A stretch of DNA of 64,000 bases from a virus. Positions 12,476-47,341 of the stretch are shown here, piece after piece. A program made the position numbers and the translations under genes. The stretch spans positions 13,592 to 77,591 of the IMG/VR virus record IMGVR_UViG_3300047548_000777. One strand, written 5' to 3'. Position 1 is the first letter of the stretch; the number at the start of each line of letters is the position of its first letter. Under the pieces are notes generated by a model. The model was given only the letters and a program-made list of their open reading frames with translations. It searched no databases and was not told the origin of the DNA.

Positions 12476-14088
12476 TGTCAACAACAACATTTTTTTATGA
12501 TGGTCAAATTAGAAGATACCTTTTGCAAATAGTTAGACTACTAAGCAACTTTGCAGTAAAATATACTGATGGGACCTTGGTTCGAATTCCTGTAATATAT
12601 GGAGATGCTGACAGGCAAGTAGCGCATATTATAAATCAAAACAGTGAAAATACCGTACAAAGTGCACCAAAGATCGCAATTTATATGGCAGATCTAGAGC
12701 TAGATACTAGCAGGCTTGCTGATAGTAGCCATGTAGGTAAAGTGCATGTTAGAGAACGGGCATACAATGAGCAGACACAAAGCTACGAAAATTATCAAGG
12801 AAACAGTTATACAGTCGAACGGTTAATGCCGACACCATATAAGCTCACAGTCAAAGTAGATATTTGGTCTACCAGTATAGATCAAAAATTACAAATACTA
12901 GAGCAAATACTAATGTTGTTTAATCCTAGTTTAGAAATTCAAACTAGCGATAACTATATTGATTGGACTAGTCTAAGTGTAGTGGATTTGACCTCTGTTG
13001 TGTTAAGTTCAAGAAGTGTACCCGTCGGTACTGCCGCAGAGATTGATATTGCTACGTTAACCTTGGCAACTCCCATATGGATTAGTCCTCCTGCCAAAGT
13101 AAAACGGCTAGGTGTTATTACTAATATTATATCGAATATCTTTACCGATAAAACTGATCAATATGGTGATTATATTGAAGGGTTAGGTGTAGACTCTTCG
13201 GCAACATATGCCTCTCCAGCAGGATCACCTGTGGCATCGTTCAGTTCTGCAACAGCAAACTATGACATCGAAGTCACTGGAAATTCAGCAAAATTATTAG
13301 GATTTGAGAATCAATATCCTAGATGGAATAATATCGTTAATAAATTCTCTGGAGTTTATACAGCAGGTTTAAGCAGAATTTATTTAAAAATACCTAGCGG
13401 AAACAATGTAGTTGGCACGTTTAGCTTAAATCCGCTAGACGATTCATTGCTAACTATTAACTGGGACGTTGATACTTACCCCACCAATACCTCAGTATAT
13501 AGTATAAACAGATCATCTACCACAACATTTGATGCCATCATTGATCCTACACGAACTGGTCCGAGGGATTCTAATCTACCTAAATTAAAACAAGGATCTA
13601 GGTACTTAATTGTTGATAAAATAGGAAATAGCATTAAGGAAACGTTTGTATCCGAAACAAAGATACAGAGAATTAATACCAACACCCTGTATAAAGATGT
13701 AGTTGATCATAAAATTTTAGTCAACGGAATTGAGGTAGGCTCCGGAAATGCACGAATACCAGATGATCTTAATACGGGGAATTACTATATTTTATTGGAT
13801 GAATTTGCACCTGCTGGCGCAGAAATTACGTATGAACTTTATACCAATGTTGACGGGCCAGAATCTTGGAAGAATAATGACGGTAGCGATTTTACAGCCA
13901 ACGAAAATGATATAATAGAGTGGGATGGTGATAAATGGAATATTGTTTTCAACTCTTTAAAGGCACAGGATCAAATAGTTTATCTATCAAACATTTTTAC
14001 CAATACACAGTATATGTGGAATGGGGTACATTGGAGTAAGAGTTTTGAAGGTATTTATAGAGCCGGAGAATGGCGCCTTGAACTTTAA
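12475..14088 (+). CDS. gp15: Tail terminator / sheath stabiliser (T4 gp15-like) with C-terminal extension
   Basis: FFYDGQIRRY, IPVIYG, P.PY.L...VDIW and QILEQIL.LFNP motifs. Follows the gp14-like gene. Confidence 0.85.
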   Translation: MSTTTFFYDGQIRRYLLQIVRLLSNFAVKYTDGTLVRIPVIYGDADRQVAHIINQNSENTVQSAPKIAIYMADLELDTSRLADSSHVGKVHVRERAYNEQTQSYENYQGNSYTVERLMPTPYKLTVKVDIWSTSIDQKLQILEQILMLFNPSLEIQTSDNYIDWTSLSVVDLTSVVLSSRSVPVGTAAEIDIATLTLATPIWISPPAKVKRLGVITNIISNIFTDKTDQYGDYIEGLGVDSSATYASPAGSPVASFSSATANYDIEVTGNSAKLLGFENQYPRWNNIVNKFSGVYTAGLSRIYLKIPSGNNVVGTFSLNPLDDSLLTINWDVDTYPTNTSVYSINRSSTTTFDAIIDPTRTGPRDSNLPKLKQGSRYLIVDKIGNSIKETFVSETKIQRINTNTLYKDVVDHKILVNGIEVGSGNARIPDDLNTGNYYILLDEFAPAGAEITYELYTNVDGPESWKNNDGSDFTANENDIIEWDGDKWNIVFNSLKAQDQIVYLSNIFTNTQYMWNGVHWSKSFEGIYRAGEWRLEL

Positions 14089-41969: not shown

Positions 41970-43172
41970 TTAAAATATCAAACTATAGACAATTGCTCTA
42001 CGTTTGCTTATTAATTCGTCGTTTGTTCCTTGAGTGTTTACAAAATACAACCCAGTTCCACCGCCACCAACTTCGTTTTTAGAATAGAATTTAACATACC
42101 CTGGATTGGATTCTTGCGATGGATTATAACTCACAGGAGCATTTTTTAAATTCAATACACTATCTAATAGTAATACGTTGGTGGAAATATTAGATATACT
42201 ATTAGATTCTAATCTAATATTGTCAGCGGTTAATCCAGAATTGTTAACTACGACTCTAGGAAATGCATCTACGTCAAATACGATTTCACCAAGGCCTGTT
42301 TGATTTGTATCGAATACCTGTACTTTAGTGTCGCCTTCTTGTATTTTATTTGTAGAAAACACTCTACGATTTGTATAATCTACAATGGCTCTTATATTCG
42401 GAATCGCATCATCATTTTTTACAGGATTCGGACGTACTGTACCTGTCGCAGAGGATGTTGCAAGGTCTGGACCTTCGTTTCTATAAGTCAGTGTTACCGC
42501 ATTAGAACCAGCATCAGGAACTGAGACAACAGTAGCAAATAATGTGTCAAAAGTTGAATTATTTAAAACAAATATATCAACTTGTCCACCAGCTATTATA
42601 GTATGCGGGGCACTGGTTGTTATTGTTGCTATATTATTAATTCTAGATATAGTTGATATTTCATAAACTGTATTAAGTTTATCGTAATCAAGAATTTGTC
42701 TTTCATAATTTAAGGTACCAGTGACATTAATAATGCCGGTACCTTGTGTGATTAAATTTAAATCATTCCCACCAGTGTCTATTCTGTTTGTTGCTATACC
42801 TTGTATTGCAGTAGATAGATCCGAAGCATCTACATAACTACTATCAACAAATACAAACTGATTAGTTCGTTCGTCCCATAATATAGAAACGTCGGGCAAT
42901 GTGCCTCTTTCTATAGAGATACCAGCAGTAGATCCTAAAGTTTTAACACCGTCCAACTGTTCATTTTGATTTAGAACAATAATGTTGTCTTTAATAGCTA
43001 GATTTTCTGACTCTATAATTGTGGTTTTGCCTTGTATATCTAAATCGCCAACAATGACTACCTTACCTTGATTTCCTAAAAAATTAGTATCAAAGGTAAT
43101 TGTACCAGGATTACCCGGAGAACCCACCACAAGTTTGTAATTACTATCTTGTACTCTAACTATTTTTGACAT
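41970..43172 (-). CDS. Baseplate/fibre-associated structural protein
   Basis: IKDNIIVLN and GISIERG motifs, resembling the SIKD..I.L and VDDKNIEL segments of the fibres. AAGGGA SD. Confidence 0.7.
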   Translation of the reverse strand: MSKIVRVQDSNYKLVVGSPGNPGTITFDTNFLGNQGKVVIVGDLDIQGKTTIIESENLAIKDNIIVLNQNEQLDGVKTLGSTAGISIERGTLPDVSILWDERTNQFVFVDSSYVDASDLSTAIQGIATNRIDTGGNDLNLITQGTGIINVTGTLNYERQILDYDKLNTVYEISTISRINNIATITTSAPHTIIAGGQVDIFVLNNSTFDTLFATVVSVPDAGSNAVTLTYRNEGPDLATSSATGTVRPNPVKNDDAIPNIRAIVDYTNRRVFSTNKIQEGDTKVQVFDTNQTGLGEIVFDVDAFPRVVVNNSGLTADNIRLESNSISNISTNVLLLDSVLNLKNAPVSYNPSQESNPGYVKFYSKNEVGGGGTGLYFVNTQGTNDELISKRRAIVYSLIF

Positions 43173-43190
43173 TATACATTCCCTTATACA

Positions 43191-43210
43191 AGGGGCCGCA
43201 TAGACCCCTA
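43191..43210 (-). terminator. Weak hairpin downstream of the Ig-domain gene
   Basis: AGGGG-loop-CCCCT inverted repeat with only a short T tail. Confidence 0.4.
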
Positions 43211-43222
43211 TAGTAAATTATA

Positions 43223-43870
43223 TTAAGCAGCAACAGTTAATGTAACCGCATTAGAAGTTACACTAGTAGCACCGGTTGCACTAACAATTACACGATATAG
43301 GTTACCGTCATCCGATGGTTGTAAACCAAGTAATAGTAAGTTATCGTTAGTAGATGCAGTATTACTCCATGTTGCGCCAGAGTCAGTTGAAACTTGCCAT
43401 AGATAAGTTAGTGTAGCACCTTCTGTTACGTTAGCAACGACCGCAAATACAGCTTCTCCATCAGCTGCGGTTTGATCAGTTGGCTGCGATGTAATCGTAA
43501 TGAACGGGGAAACACTGGTTTCAACTTCATCCATTTCTGCCTTTCCATCTGTAATACTACCATCGAATGTCCAAGCATAGCTTACACCGCCGGCGACAAC
43601 TCTATGTGCAGCAATCTTAGTAACTCTTCGAACAACGCCGTCATCAGTTTGTACACTGATAGACATCTCGTTAGCTGCTAACGAACCATCTGCTTTATCT
43701 ACTAAGAAACAATCACCTGTGTTAGCACCAACTGTTACTTTAAATTTTCTGGTACCTCGTTGACTTACAATTCTGCCGTCGCCTTCTGCATTGGCACCGA
43801 TTTTTGCACGAACTTTGATCTGATTACCTGCGCCAGATCCGAAATATCTCTTGTTTAGTGGACGTCCCAT
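43223..43870 (-). CDS. Virion protein with C-terminal Ig-like domain (possible Hoc-like decoration protein)
   Basis: C-terminal ITITSQP.DQT...F.V.A...LTYLWQ.S...DDG..YRVIVS...S..V.LTV Ig pattern. AAGGA SD. Confidence 0.75.
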   Translation of the reverse strand: MGRPLNKRYFGSGAGNQIKVRAKIGANAEGDGRIVSQRGTRKFKVTVGANTGDCFLVDKADGSLAANEMSISVQTDDGVVRRVTKIAAHRVVAGGVSYAWTFDGSITDGKAEMDEVETSVSPFITITSQPTDQTAADGEAVFAVVANVTEGATLTYLWQVSTDSGATWSNTASTNDNLLLLGLQPSDDGNLYRVIVSATGATSVTSNAVTLTVAA

Positions 43871-43882
43871 TTGTTTGATTCC

Positions 43883-43968
43883 TTATAAATAGTATTATGG
43901 ATGTGGGTTCTATCCACTACGGTGTGGGGCACCGTAAGCTATTATCTGTTAAATAGCATCCATTACTA
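43883..43968 (-). ncRNA. Structured 5' leader RNA (four-way junction), copy A
   Basis: P1 AUAGUA-AUGGAU/AUCCAU-A-AUACUAU encloses P2 GCUAUU/AAUAGC, P3 UACGGUG/CACCGUA and P4 GUGG/CCAC. It lies between a late promoter (43969-75) and the SD. Confidence 0.7.
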
Positions 43969-43974
43969 TTATTT

Positions 43975-44649
43975 ATGTATATTAAGATGAATACTCCTTA
44001 CACTTACCTAATCGGATGGTCAGATTTAAATCGTTGGTATTACGGCGTTCGATATTCTAAGAATTGCCATCCAACTGACTTGTGGAATCCGTATAAGACA
44101 TCAAGTAAGATAGTATTAAAATTTATTAAAGATCACGGAGAGCCCGATATTCGAATTGTTCGTCGTACATTTAACAGCGTTAACGAAGCAAGAGTATGGG
44201 AGCATAGAGTTCTATTAAAATTAAACGTCATTAATAAAGAGAAATGGTTGAACGGACATAATACTATTGCGTTTGATATTACATTAGTTCCAAAAGGAGA
44301 TCAACACTGGACTAGAAAGAATCCCGAAAAGTGGGCTAAAATTCAAAAATTTAGAAAATACCAAAAAGGGGAAATGCATTGGACTAATCAAAAAACTGCA
44401 TCGGCGCAACAGCATCGAACGCGAATGAATAGCGAAATGAATCCTAATAATTTTTTACACAACAAGATTTTAAGAAGTGAAAAGTTAAAAATCGATAATC
44501 CTGTTAATTTACCAGGAGTTAAAAATAAAATTAAAGAAACATTAACAGGATATAAGCATCCTCGTAAAATATGCGAGCACTGCGGTAAAGATGTAGCTGA
44601 TTCGATTTATACAAGATGGCACGGAACTAAATGTAAAAATTTAGGTTGA
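43975..44649 (+). CDS. Free-standing homing endonuclease, GIY-YIG-like (Seg-type)
   Basis: YTYLIGW....WYYGVR, Y.TSS, EA..WE..VL and WLN motifs, NP-type DNA-binding repeats, and C-terminal CEHCGK...RWH..KC. Antisense to the operon. Confidence 0.8.
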   Translation: MYIKMNTPYTYLIGWSDLNRWYYGVRYSKNCHPTDLWNPYKTSSKIVLKFIKDHGEPDIRIVRRTFNSVNEARVWEHRVLLKLNVINKEKWLNGHNTIAFDITLVPKGDQHWTRKNPEKWAKIQKFRKYQKGEMHWTNQKTASAQQHRTRMNSEMNPNNFLHNKILRSEKLKIDNPVNLPGVKNKIKETLTGYKHPRKICEHCGKDVADSIYTRWHGTKCKNLG

Positions 44650-44703
44650 CGTTTTAGGTCTACGCTGCGGGGTTACAGCATAAGTCTCGTGTTAAACGAG
44701 CAC
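44648..44703 (-). ncRNA. Structured leader RNA, copy B (orphaned, 3' arm of P1 missing)
   Basis: P2 CUCG/CGAG, P3 UAUGCUG/CAGCGUA and P4 GAC/GUC, with loops matching copy A. Late promoter ATAAATA at 44721-27. Confidence 0.65.
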
Positions 44704-44736
44704 TCAGTTATAGACATATGTATTTATCATATAAAG

Positions 44737-44762
44737 AAAAAGGCTTCCGAAGAAGCCTTTTA
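44737..44762 (-). terminator. Intrinsic terminator (UUCG loop) after the orphan capsid-end copy
   Basis: AAAAAGGCTTC-TTCG-GAAGCCTTTTT on the minus strand. Confidence 0.85.
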
Positions 44763-44783
44763 TTGGGGGTGTTACTCAGTTAA

Positions 44784-44846
44784 TTAACTAAACTTGACTG
44801 CGCCAGAAGCGATAGCAACCTTACCTAAGTAATCTGCGGCATTTCC
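44784..44846 (-). pseudogene. Orphan duplicate of the last 20 codons plus stop of the major capsid gene
   Basis: Encodes GNAADYLGKVAIASGAVKFS*, identical in protein to 46166-46228. 53/63 nt identical and every difference is synonymous. Confidence 0.9.
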
Positions 44847-44856
44847 TACGGAAACT

Positions 44857-45159
44857 TTATAGTGGTAATTGAGAACTAAGTTCTAGTATTCGATCTTTCA
44901 TTTCAATTAGTTCGTTGTTTGTTTTTTCAATATCTGGATCATTTTTATCAGGATAATTGATATTTAAAATACTATCGATTACAGAAATAAATTCCTCAAC
45001 GTTATTTAAAATCATTGCAGATCTAGAAGGAGATCTTAATCTTATCAAAATATTTAAAGATTTTTCAAGTATATCATATGTATGTTTTACAGAATCAATA
45101 TCTACTCCGCGCATGTTAGACCATAATAAATTCTTATCAGTTATTTCAAATATTCTCAC
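44857..45159 (-). CDS. Hypothetical protein (cargo of the endonuclease cassette)
   Basis: AGGAG SD then TTG/GTG. The GTG at 45159 gives MRIFEITDK. AT-rich. Confidence 0.55.
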   Translation of the reverse strand: MRIFEITDKNLLWSNMRGVDIDSVKHTYDILEKSLNILIRLRSPSRSAMILNNVEEFISVIDSILNINYPDKNDPDIEKTNNELIEMKDRILELSSQLPL

Positions 45160-45295
45160 CAAGAGATCTCCTATGCTCTAATTCTTTGATTAGATCCGTT
45201 AAATCAGATTCTGCTTGATGACGCAAATCATTAATTTTTTTGTTTATTTCTCTAATTTTGTTAATTGTATCTTCAGATAAATTTTTATTTTCCAT
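45146..45295 (-). CDS. Small 49-aa coiled-coil ORF
   Basis: Read manually: MENKNLSEDTINKIREINKKINDLRHQAESDLTDLIKELEHRRSLGENI*. Starts 2 nt after the HNH stop. Confidence 0.5.
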   Translation of the reverse strand: MENKNLSEDTINKIREINKKINDLRHQAESDLTDLIKELEHRRSLGENI

Positions 45296-45297
45296 AA

Positions 45298-46065
45298 TTA
45301 TTCCGTTTTAAGTTTACAATTATCCCCGTGCCATCTAGCATATCCATTAACTGCAACTAACTGATTGCAATGAGGGCACTGCTTCTTTTCTCGTTTCATA
45401 TTTAAAGCCCGCTGTGTTTCTGCTCGACGCACAACTACTTCCGGATCTTGTTTTCGCCCAGACAATGATTCACTTATCTTTTTCTTTGTATCTTCTGATA
45501 CATTAATCCCAAATCTATTATTATTTTCTCCTTGTTTAGAAGCAGATAACTTTCCTCTCCATTCTTTAGAAAAAGGCTTGCGTTTTTTTCCTAATTTACT
45601 GGCAGATATCTTCGCTCTTGCCTCTAGTTGTTTAGCACCGTTATTTTCACCGGTAACTGCTGCTCGTTGTCTTTCTGTTCCTTCTGCACTACGGTAAAAT
45701 TTGTCTCCGTACATAGGATTTTTCTCGCCAGAGTATCGTTCACTTTGTAACATAGAGTATTCTTCTTTCAAATTTTCATATACTCTAGCTGTAACTTTTG
45801 TTTTATATCGTTGTTGGCGGGAATTTTCTGCTTGCATCATTCTAAATGCGTTAATCATTTTCCAGTGTGCTTCACCGGTAGGGTATATTTTTGTTAATAA
45901 CCAATGGCATATAAAATGTTCGCGGGCAGTTAAATCAGTTAAATTTTCAATGGAATCATCGCCGCCTAGACTTTTTGGCAGTATGTGATGTTTTTCTGTA
46001 TAACCATCTCTAAGTGCTTTTCCTACAGTTGTAATAGCTACATACCATTTTTTGTATTTGTTCAT
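45298..46065 (-). CDS. Free-standing HNH homing endonuclease with NUMOD3-like repeats
   Basis: EKHHILPKSLGG.D...NL..LTAREHF.CH.LL, G.KNPMYG, SEDTKKKISESLSG and C-terminal CPHC...RWH.DNC. Start moved from 46101 to MNKY (46065), 5 nt after TATAAATA. Confidence 0.9.
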   Translation of the reverse strand: MNKYKKWYVAITTVGKALRDGYTEKHHILPKSLGGDDSIENLTDLTAREHFICHWLLTKIYPTGEAHWKMINAFRMMQAENSRQQRYKTKVTARVYENLKEEYSMLQSERYSGEKNPMYGDKFYRSAEGTERQRAAVTGENNGAKQLEARAKISASKLGKKRKPFSKEWRGKLSASKQGENNNRFGINVSEDTKKKISESLSGRKQDPEVVVRRAETQRALNMKREKKQCPHCNQLVAVNGYARWHGDNCKLKTE

Positions 46066-46070
46066 AACTT

Positions 46071-46121
46071 TATTTATATTCGATAACTCAACATAATACA
46101 TTAAAAATAAAATTAAGTCAA
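46071..46121 (-). promoter_or_regulatory. Tandem sigma70-type and T4 late promoters for the HNH gene
   Basis: TTGACT (46116-21)-17 nt-TATTAT (46093-98), then TATAAATA (46071-78). Confidence 0.65.
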
Positions 46122-46122
46122 G

Positions 46123-46147
46123 AAAAAACCCGCCGAAGCGGGTTTTT
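46123..46147 (-). terminator. Intrinsic terminator (UUCG loop) after the major capsid gene
   Basis: AAAAACCCGC-TTCG-GCGGGTTTTTT. Confidence 0.9.
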
Positions 46148-46165
46148 GATATATTAAATGCTCAA

Positions 46166-47341
46166 TTAAGAGAACTTAACAGCACCAGAAGCAATAGCAA
46201 CCTTACCTAAGTAATCTGCAGCGTTACCTAGAGAGCTAGCAGTATTACTCAATTCCACGTAGCCATATCTCGTCATAAAGCTTACGACTGGTTCGAATGT
46301 AGACGGATCTAGAACAACACCAGAGCTCATTAGAGGAACATATGGGCAATAGAATGCAGCAGCGTCTGCTTCGCTGGAACCCTTATATCCAACTAGGATA
46401 TCAGCGTTATCAGCAGCATATGTGTTAACATAGATCTTCATTGCGTTGTTTAGTGTACCAACGAACTTGGTGTTTGTTGGAGCTTCAAAAGTACCTTCTG
46501 TAGTACGAGCAAATGCACTAGTAGTAGCAGATTGTAGAATTGTTAAAGCTAGTGGGCTAACAACTGCCCAGTTACCTGCGCCACGACGTGTACGCTGAGC
46601 GATTAAGTTAGCAACACGGTTGATCTGAACAGCTAAAGCAGCGTGCTCGTCACCAACGAAAGTAGCAGTACCGCTAACAGCAGACTGGTCATAAGTCTGT
46701 AGAGCAGCACCTGCTAGGTTGTTTAAAGAACCTAGAACTTCTTGATCGATTTCAGCAGTAATTTCTTGTGCTAGAGCAGCCATGATTTCTGCTTCGATAT
46801 CGATACCTTGTTGAGCTTGTGCATCTTGTGCAGCTTCGAAAGTCCAACGTGCGCTTAGTTTGCGTGTCTTGGCTTCGACGGTCTGCTTTAAGATTTGAAT
46901 GCTCATTCTGTTACCAGCAGTACCTTCTAACGCAGCAGTATTAGCAGCCTTAGCAGCATTTGCATTTTGGTTACCAGAATAAGCTTCAGCAATCTTGAAT
47001 GGGCTGAATGCTTCTTCACCAGCTACAACGCCAGCGCCAGTGCTTGTATCACTGTAGCGAACACGTAGAGTATGAATTTGGCCAACTGGACCAGTTAGAG
47101 GCTGAACACCAACTAGTTCGTTAGCAATAACGGTTGGCATAACGCGACGAATAACCGGTAGAATAACACGGTTTAGTGTTGCAACGTTACCAGCAGAAGT
47201 AGCGCCAGCTGTAGCACTTTCTGCAAGATACTTGCGTGTATTTTCTAATGTTACAGCCATTGTGGATTTACGGGTGCCGCGTAGGCCTTCTAATAGGGCT
47301 TCCTTGGTCTCGTTCCAACGGCCAGTGAGTAGTTCTGACAT
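46166..47341 (-). CDS. gp23: Major capsid protein (T4 gp23-like)
   Basis: LP.IRR.MP..IANELVGVQP..GP.G.I, VEAKTRKL.A.WT.E.AQD, EI.AEID.E, YKG..E.DA..FYCPYVPL and FMTRYG. Strong codon bias. Confidence 0.97.
   Translation of the reverse strand: MSELLTGRWNETKEALLEGLRGTRKSTMAVTLENTRKYLAESATAGATSAGNVATLNRVILPVIRRVMPTVIANELVGVQPLTGPVGQIHTLRVRYSDTSTGAGVVAGEEAFSPFKIAEAYSGNQNANAAKAANTAALEGTAGNRMSIQILKQTVEAKTRKLSARWTFEAAQDAQAQQGIDIEAEIMAALAQEITAEIDQEVLGSLNNLAGAALQTYDQSAVSGTATFVGDEHAALAVQINRVANLIAQRTRRGAGNWAVVSPLALTILQSATTSAFARTTEGTFEAPTNTKFVGTLNNAMKIYVNTYAADNADILVGYKGSSEADAAAFYCPYVPLMSSGVVLDPSTFEPVVSFMTRYGYVELSNTASSLGNAADYLGKVAIASGAVKFS

Follow-up and report, generated by a model that had tools for sequence, protein, structure and literature searches.

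The locus described here raises the question of why a structured RNA leader should occur twice in a row downstream of a major capsid gene, once in front of a gene and once in front of nothing. It lies in a stretch of 64,000 nucleotides (nt), hereafter the window, corresponding to positions 13,592 to 77,591 of the IMG/VR virus record IMGVR_UViG_3300047548_000777. Between window positions 43,871 and 44,730 the - strand carries two hairpin-rich segments, copies A and B, which are separated by an open reading frame (ORF) on the opposite strand, and copy A leads directly into a gene for a 215-amino-acid (aa) protein beginning with MGRP. The first-pass annotation took the pair for a new four-way-junction RNA with two functional operator copies. 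A different reading is favoured here, with a probability of roughly 0.8: both copies belong to the known Rfam family RF02980 (freshwater-2), copy B being a relic of the insertion of a homing endonuclease gene and copy A its substitute.

All helices named in that annotation do exist on the - strand where they had been placed. Copy A starts with the late-promoter box CATAAATA (43977-43970), which overlaps the first ATG of the opposite-strand endonuclease ORF, and continues into a structured core (43888..43970) outlined by both its minimum free energy (MFE) fold and its RF02980 match. The core consists of P1, with 13-nt arms at 43970-43958 and 43902-43888, P2 (43957-43938), P3 (43936-43918) and P4 (43917-43903), and is followed by the Shine-Dalgarno (SD) sequence AAGGA (43884-43880), an A-rich spacer and the AUG at 43870-43868. 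Copy B has the late-promoter box GATAAATA (44728-44721) and a freshwater-2 core of the short, type I kind (44648..44700, with P2 at 44700-44686, P3 at 44682-44661 and P4 at 44660-44648), which ends after P4; an SD, a start codon and a gene of its own are all absent downstream. The MFE of copy A (43977-43868) is -29.1 kcal/mol (z = -5.28, equalled by none of 200 shuffles) and its fold is a four-way junction. In copy B (44728-44648; z = -3.34) the three inner hairpins are present, and the outer helix of the MFE fold borrows endonuclease coding sequence.

A relaxed cmscan search against Rfam returned RF02980, a family of type Cis-reg, for both copies, so that the claim of novelty does not hold. 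Copy A matches with 45.2 bits over model positions 1-84, and copy B with 29.2 bits over positions 1-70 of 84, positions 71-84 being missing; the E-values are 1.8e-5 and 0.029, respectively, for 1 kb of sequence, and 3.4e-7 for copy A when the whole 77.6-kb record is considered. This record (21% complete) contains no freshwater-2 elements other than A and B. The remaining Rfam families gave nothing above noise in 43700-44900 (E ≥ 0.7), and a tRNA or tRNA-like gene was rejected as a candidate, none having been called by ARAGORN in the window. The RF02980 model comprises three tandem hairpins, then AAGGAGA and AUG; the hairpins correspond to P2, P3 and P4, while P1 falls outside the model. The same hairpin order, with P3 and P4 abutting, is found in A and B alike (cmscan alignments, the MFE fold of A, and the alignment of B to our own covariance model R1, which detects it with 54.2 bits, E = 1e-12). 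The 3′-terminal model positions 68-84, which hold the SD and the start codon, are represented in copy A and absent from copy B; since the alignment of the latter stops at model position 70 and enters the endonuclease gene, copy B is a truncated family member. By their covariance-model alignments the two copies are thus new members of RF02980, A a divergent and B a truncated one.

The likeness to freshwater-2 extends to the CUUAUG and CGUAG segments, the UAGAAC loop, and the SD and AUG at the 3′ end. Copy A (CUUACG, CGUAG, AUAGAAC loop) deviates in several respects: C-G replaces the family U-G in P3, P2 is rich in AU, a closing stem is present and the SD, AAGGAAU, is weaker; copy B reads CUUAUG, CGUAG and CUAAAAC, and its A-for-G loop variant is seen in other members. 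Of the loops that had been considered conserved, CCC(A/G) of P3 and NUAGAAC of P4 proved to be so throughout the family, whereas UAACA of P2 did not: the P2 loop varies, and its sharing by A and B is a coincidence. With the curated cut-off of 49.9 bits as the operational threshold, relatives possess leaders of 51.9, 54.4, 57.2 and 70.2 bits at the corresponding position, and other leaders reach 40-49 bits. Two orthologous loci, reached via the downstream protein, hold the motif at the same position with 51.9 and 45.1 bits.

To delineate the family, IMG/VR was scanned with a degenerate pattern derived from P3 and P4. This returned at least 120 stretches, and among these listed matches all but one are true members, every one of which pairs at all free positions of P3 and is followed by an SD and the ATG of a protein beginning with MGRP (rarely MAR). 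When 100 matches were aligned to a covariance model built from seven type I members, pairing was kept in 98.8% of the cells (93 distinct relatives) versus 77.2% in shuffles, double-change cells numbered 245 versus 68.8, and compensatory change occurred in 9 of 14 pairs; the observed pairing values were matched by none of 500 shuffles, and slid controls stayed at or below 55%, whereby one must bear in mind that five P3 pairs were preset by the search pattern and that the alignment was fitted to the model. P2 occurs as 59 distinct stems, perfect stems of at least 4 bp being present in 86% of the leaders versus 29% of the shuffles. That a covarying, structured 5′ leader lies behind a late promoter and ahead of the SD of a virion gene, and that it precedes MGRP-starting homologues, is in this way borne out.

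The conserved unit consists of a late box, the variable hairpin P2, P3, whose lower stem (UUAUG/CGUA) is invariant and whose loop is CCC(A/G), a short P4 stacked directly on it with the invariant NUAGAAC loop, a strong SD and AUG GGN. A TAAATA/ATAAATA box, the predicted promoter, stands upstream of all 113 of 113 leaders, mostly 26-35 nt ahead of CUUA. Two subtypes can be told apart: type I (short) leaders with a 3-bp P4 (GAC/GUC) and the SD 5-10 nt after it, and type II (long) leaders with a 4-bp P4 followed by CAUYGGACUYCU, often with a small hairpin pairing CUYCU with the SD. Copy B is a canonical type I leader whose 46-nt core is 96% identical to that of locus L016. The type I model scores B with 54.2 bits and A with only 11.1 bits, so the two copies represent different subtypes. 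A recent tandem duplication was rejected as their origin on the same scores and for want of a direct repeat: none linking A and B was detected, and only family-conserved nucleotides are common to both.

In most of 112 IMG/VR loci the leader is embedded in the same gene order: a Gp23-type capsid gene (proteins of 74-86% amino acid identity), a spacer, the leader, the MGRP gene and homologues of the next three ORFs. The spacer between capsid gene and leader measures 68 to 1861 nt, and the cargo ORFs found in it differ from phage to phage and are unrelated; because both its size and its cargo vary, it is regarded as a hyperplastic spot. One such cargo ORF (L002:2196-2924, in a 250-kb contig) has an HNNHH box and by eye resembles an auxiliary gene of the fatty-acid desaturase type. 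A single leader copy is found per contig in contigs of 115-250 kb, and since these are estimated to be 32-71% complete, the genomes should be near 350 kb. A separate IMG/VR contig (L037:482-1721) harbours two complete tandem leaders, each preceding its own MGRP paralogue (MGRPLSKQ... and MGRPLRND...), which is a true duplication of gene plus leader, unlike the arrangement in the window. The capsid gene of the window shares approximately 71% nucleotide identity with those of PA5oct-like and other jumbo phages, and a search for cultured carriers of the leader gave no blastn match among 50,697 phage records. Freshwater-2 is, then, the 5′ leader of the late mRNA for an MGRP virion protein in uncultured freshwater phages of about 350 kb.

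What separates the two copies is the gene of a putative SEG-like GIY-YIG homing endonuclease (224 aa; 43975..44649, + strand, alternative start at 43987), which runs antisense to the leaders and whose stop codon overlaps the 3′ arm of P4 of copy B. The left junction of this cassette is established by sequence alignment: homology of the - strand to intact leaders ends at 44641..44647, just past P4 plus AAC, and when the copy B region is aligned by blastn to intact-leader loci, more than 30 in number, every alignment terminates at 44640-44651. In comparison with locus L100, homology resumes at 43876, 6 nt ahead of the AUG, leaving 768 nt in the window versus 8 in L100. Upstream of the junction lies a 200-nt block (44846-44645) with a capsid-gene tail, a terminator, promoter B and leader B; relatives free of the endonuclease are collinear with it, and the region aligns to L100 and L055 at 69-71% over ~217 nt in blastn. 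The endonuclease is missing from 112 other, collinear leader loci; L142 and L149 have it at the junction seen in the window. The former (88% identity in the capsid protein, 86% in the endonuclease) repeats the architecture of the window, with a remnant that ends after P4 at the 3′ end of the endonuclease gene and a sister leader scoring 57.2 bits against RF02980; in the latter (endonuclease identity 49%) the leader is likewise cut directly after P4, at the 3′ end of the endonuclease gene.

The linkage between this endonuclease and the leader is also demonstrated from the side of the enzyme. The contexts of its closest homologues (P0004-P0012) were sampled through the metagenome scan, and all nine close relatives (48-86% identity) for which the 5′ flank is available have a full-length freshwater-2 element head-to-head on the opposite strand. 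These linked leaders lie 4-38 nt from the endonuclease start codon and score 40.5-57.2 bits with RF02980. No leader was found beside approximately 70 loci with more distant endonuclease relatives. At the remaining six loci no remnant is seen, and the leader downstream of the endonuclease gene is that of a different MGRP paralogue (MGRPLKIQK type). In five loci (L144, L146, L147, L148 and L143) the gene following the endonuclease starts 5 nt past a TAAATA box with no SD, maybe as a leaderless late message. Loci L134 and L135 were considered as a further case of a SEG relative beside a leader and rejected, only the C-terminal DNA-binding region being common.

Taken together, these data do not support two functional operators, as copy B is truncated, has nothing to regulate, and the endonuclease cassette splits the leader. 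Copy A would be the working leader of the 215-aa gene and copy B the resident type I leader, severed after P4, the cassette having carried in its own variant leader or remained linked to it. There would accordingly be two copies because a mobile homing endonuclease gene landed inside the leader, leaving a remnant behind and bringing a substitute.

The assignment of the intervening gene to the homing endonucleases follows from tblastn matches covering 96% of its length (4e-25 and 1e-21) to genes that are annotated as (SEG-like) homing endonucleases in phages ACP17 and Ps15. The ORF also matches phrog_314. A search of 5.8 billion proteins yielded 382 homologues at E ≤ 1e-10, many of them with PF07460, as expected of a NUMOD3-type C-terminal region, and the N-terminal motif YTYLIGW...WYYGVR is invariant in 16 homologues; no sequence match to the gene product was found in the PDB. 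Endonuclease genes commonly adjoin capsid genes (PMC10448857). In T4, segD is situated between genes 23 and 24 (PMC2988022, Table 1) and SegB within the tRNA gene cluster that it targets (PMC2988022, PMC2330249). Like the T4 Seg genes, the gene of the window is a small, free-standing gene of the GIY-YIG type, intergenic beside the major capsid gene, polymorphic for presence and absence among related phages and accompanied by moving flanking sequence; like SegB, it is associated with DNA encoding a structured RNA. It differs from them in its head-to-head position within a 5′ leader, which it splits, in carrying a substitute leader with a putative promoter on the opposite strand inside it, and in a catalytic domain that remains below the Pfam threshold.

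A second cassette of comparable layout is found next door. An orphan copy of the final 20 capsid-gene codons (44784..44846, - strand) encodes a peptide identical to the real end of the capsid protein (46228-46166); the two copies differ at 10 of 63 nt, all silent, and each is followed by its own UUCG terminator. The duplicates bracket an HNH-NUMOD3 endonuclease gene (45298-46101) together with a 101-aa ORF. As both tails encode a peptide unseen in 64 relatives, they are duplicates of each other and no import from a distant lineage is implied. Thus, both endonuclease cassettes are flanked by duplicates of the element that they interrupt. The gene of loci L134 and L135 directly follows the capsid gene, as does the HNH gene of the window; the spacer cargo of other loci showed no homology to the HNH, 101-aa ORF or SEG genes of the window.

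The expression of the SEG-like gene may be tied to the substitute leader. A perfect match to the T4-type late promoter consensus, TATAAATA, is located on the + strand inside the 3′ arm of P1 of copy A (43884..43891), 84-96 nt from the endonuclease gene, and is its putative late promoter. Endonuclease-linked leaders have a special segment between P4 and the SD containing UAUUUAUAAGGAAUC, which reads (T/C)ATAAATA on the other strand. A box of the ATAAATA type was found on the opposite strand in 8 of 10 linked leaders versus 1 of 112 endonuclease-free ones, and the SD variant AAGGAAU in 6 of 10 versus 0 of 112; because three of the ten linked leaders are nearly identical, fewer independent lineages are represented than these counts suggest. 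The boxes at 43977-43970 (-) and 43884-43891 (+) would drive convergent transcripts overlapping over P2-P4 (43897-43964), and the 5′ untranslated region of the endonuclease mRNA would be a perfect antisense of these hairpins. A perfect 12-nt inverted repeat (AATAGTATTATG / CATAATACTATT) is present at 43888-43899, in the 3′ arm of P1 of copy A, and 44257-44268, in the endonuclease ORF; it may be due to chance in AT-rich DNA.

From these sequence patterns it may be proposed, tentatively and at less than even odds, that the leader DNA is the homing site of the putative endonuclease. Equally tentative is the wider scheme in which the endonuclease lineage would home on leader DNA and move with a diverged, cleavage-immune substitute leader, the spacer between P4 and the SD doubling as its late promoter and the HNH cassette being a second case. 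I-TevI is known to repress itself by binding an operator similar to its homing site; this operator overlaps the late promoter of I-TevI (PMC2988022). Similarly, the putative late promoter of the window endonuclease would lie inside the sequence that is most likely its target; I-TevI is intron-encoded, the window gene free-standing, and the comparison is purely an analogy.

Several points weigh against the favoured interpretation as a whole. Neither copy reaches the gathering score of RF02980, copy A being 4.7 bits short of it. No right-hand border can be assigned to the cassette, since conservation of the first codons of the MGRP gene extends to all relatives. Since L142 is a close relative, its insertion and that of the window may represent one event rather than two. 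The promoter and hairpins of copy B are intact and may still act. The match of the endonuclease to PF19835 (SegE_GIY-YIG) attains 18.4 bits against a cut-off of 25 and covers the N-terminal 101 aa only. Phage PA5oct possesses an MGRP homologue and lacks the leader, so the MG start does not need the RNA. Finally, freshwater-2 is reportedly a product of the 2017 comparative screen of Weinberg et al., and neither this name nor RF02980 is mentioned in the body text of the literature searched. The name was not found in the main text of that study (PMC5737381), nor was any description found of a phage host, a capsid-adjacent position or an MGRP gene family for the motif.

The gene served by copy A (43223..43870, - strand) encodes a protein that begins with MGRPLNKRYFG and is assigned to phrog_613, head protein. 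Two domains are predicted in it: residues 1-115 form an N-domain, confidently modelled as all-beta, and residues 119-215 a C-terminal domain of the Ig-like kind, with predicted local distance difference test (pLDDT) values of 82 and 86 for the models. The latter domain resembles the capsid Ig-like protein of phage Moo19 (Z 7.0, root-mean-square deviation 2.6, 89 aa) and Hoc of RB49 (Z 6.1). The N-domain has structural relatives in other jumbo phages and shows weak matches to Tudor/SH3/KOW-like barrels (Z ≤ 4.6), from which no RNA-binding fold is deduced. Most proteins of the family measure 116-163 aa, the Ig-like C-domain of the window protein being an addition. The homologue in PA5oct, gp102, has been annotated as a virion protein on the basis of mass spectrometry. 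The view that the leader precedes a virion gene with an Ig-like domain near the capsid gene is well founded, and the 215-aa protein is probably located on the capsid surface.

As to the way in which the RNA works, terminator and anti-SD alternatives are absent from type I leaders, which makes a classical riboswitch unlikely. CC(C)(A/G) forms the end of nearly every P3 loop, and a complement to this loop of at least 4 nt occurs at the AUG (AUGGG) in 72-77% of the leaders, as opposed to at most 16% elsewhere between -18 and +45. AUGGC occurs in five leaders, and in two of these the P3 loop reads GCC(A) instead of the usual CCC(A/G). The RNA may therefore tune translation initiation, in that the P3 loop pairs with AUGGG and masks the start codon, probably controlled by a partner protein for which the invariant P3 base and the P4 loop would serve as recognition features; judged from sequence, this model is a serious possibility, though somewhat short of an even chance, and the partner could perhaps be the product of the MGRP gene itself. 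It is weakened by the fact that the pairing amounts to just 4 bp with both partners conserved, for which reason its covariation rests on two sequences. Operators in which a loop pairs with the start region in a pseudoknot and traps or hides the initiation region occur in the E. coli rpsO mRNA, bound by S15, and in the gene 32 mRNA of T4. By analogy, freshwater-2 is a small, gene-specific 5′ leader that ends at the SD and AUG and has a loop complementary to the start region; it differs in that its pairing is only ~4 bp, and the likeness concerns the possible mode of action, not membership.

Alternatively, the element could be constitutive, its 5′-proximal hairpins blocking 5′-end-dependent decay and exposing a strong, unstructured SD for a steady, high output of a stoichiometric capsid protein. 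This would accord with the position of the type I SD, 5-10 nt past P4 with no anti-SD or terminator alternative, with a first hairpin that begins a few nt after the predicted start site, and with a P2 whose sequence varies freely, as expected of a purely structural hairpin. A stabiliser would, however, be expected on other abundant late messages as well, whereas the leader is seen once per 115-250 kb contig and always at the MGRP gene, and the invariant lower P3 stem and P4 loop indicate specific recognition. The association with one gene and the invariance of the P3 base and P4 loop favour gene-specific recognition over simple stabilisation, which on balance leaves the latter, the main rival, at well below even odds.

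A living copy B appears less plausible still. Its transcript would cross the endonuclease gene in antisense orientation and extend into copy A and the MGRP gene, so that the endonuclease would be silenced late in infection and the longer, second message would permit the full 13-bp P1. Copy B does have a consensus promoter box, and no terminator was found between B and A in a scan of the - strand over 43100-46300, the sole terminator-like site in that interval being an intrinsic terminator with a UUCG loop upstream of promoter B (44738..44761); moreover, the truncated leaders of the window, L142 and L149 all retain promoter, P2, P3 and P4. Yet frequent homing would renew fresh-looking left flanks without any selection, and the remnant of L142 lacks the CGUAG junction. 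We consider a functional copy B improbable and keep to its interpretation as a relic.

There remains the four-way junction itself. Copy A does fold in this manner with z = -5.28, as had been claimed; what does not stand is its extension to the family, as the distance between P4 and SD in type I leaders leaves no space for a closing stem. The outer half of P1 of copy A coincides with an inverted repeat (I4) of the two facing late-promoter boxes and should lie mostly outside the RNA made from promoter A, which would retain only the inner 6 bp (AUGGAU at 43963-43958 with AUCCAU at 43902-43897). In type II leaders, pairing of 5-7 bp is possible between the AUYGGAC element and the first bases of the transcript (e.g. 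GUCAGAU/AUCGGAC and GUUCAA/UUGGAC, both sides being swapped in copy A to AUGGAU/AUCCAU), and a closing stem is plausible in this subfamily. On the other hand, 84 of the 113 leaders have no predicted closing pairs once untranscribed bases are removed, and cognate and non-cognate closing duplexes (-4.0 vs -2.9 kcal/mol) are only about 1 kcal/mol apart. Only copy A and its nearest relative possess the four-way junction. A new four-way-junction regulatory RNA with two functional copies, which was the initial view and to which the fold of copy A and the closing pairs of some type II relatives lend themselves, can hence hardly be upheld in the face of an existing Rfam family, outer P1 arms that are promoter boxes and a copy B without a downstream gene. 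That the conservation is at the DNA level only, the site being a recombination or endonuclease landing spot whose hairpins have no role as RNA, would fit a hotspot with varied spacer cargo and two cassettes bracketed by duplicates, but is highly improbable given that the compensatory changes on the mRNA strand, G-U included, and the fixed position between promoter and SD fit an RNA and not a protein-DNA site, and that more than 100 leaders have no endonuclease nearby.

Elsewhere in the window, a full-length match to the Polynucleobacter-1 RNA (RF01718; 75.1 bits, cut-off 37) was observed at 58986-59139 (-), within 58665-59227, the sole long gap of the record that is non-coding.

As far as the RNA is concerned, the outcome is mainly a clean-up, since the "new" four-way-junction leader is an orphan Rfam motif. 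This motif can now be placed, however: it belongs to giant T4-like freshwater phages, follows a late promoter and serves the gene after the major capsid gene. The locus further indicates that a conserved non-coding leader can be a landing pad for a homing endonuclease, an element that would spare the downstream virion gene by carrying a replacement leader. Such an event leaves a signature, diverged duplicates flanking a small antisense ORF, which may be mistaken for paralogous regulatory RNAs with compensatory changes, and its recognition should avert similar false leads. A testable pair of endonuclease and target is gained in uncultured phages. If the homing scheme is true, a "bring your own replacement" strategy would have been used twice at one locus, and the facing late promoters would couple the expression of a selfish gene to that of a virion gene.

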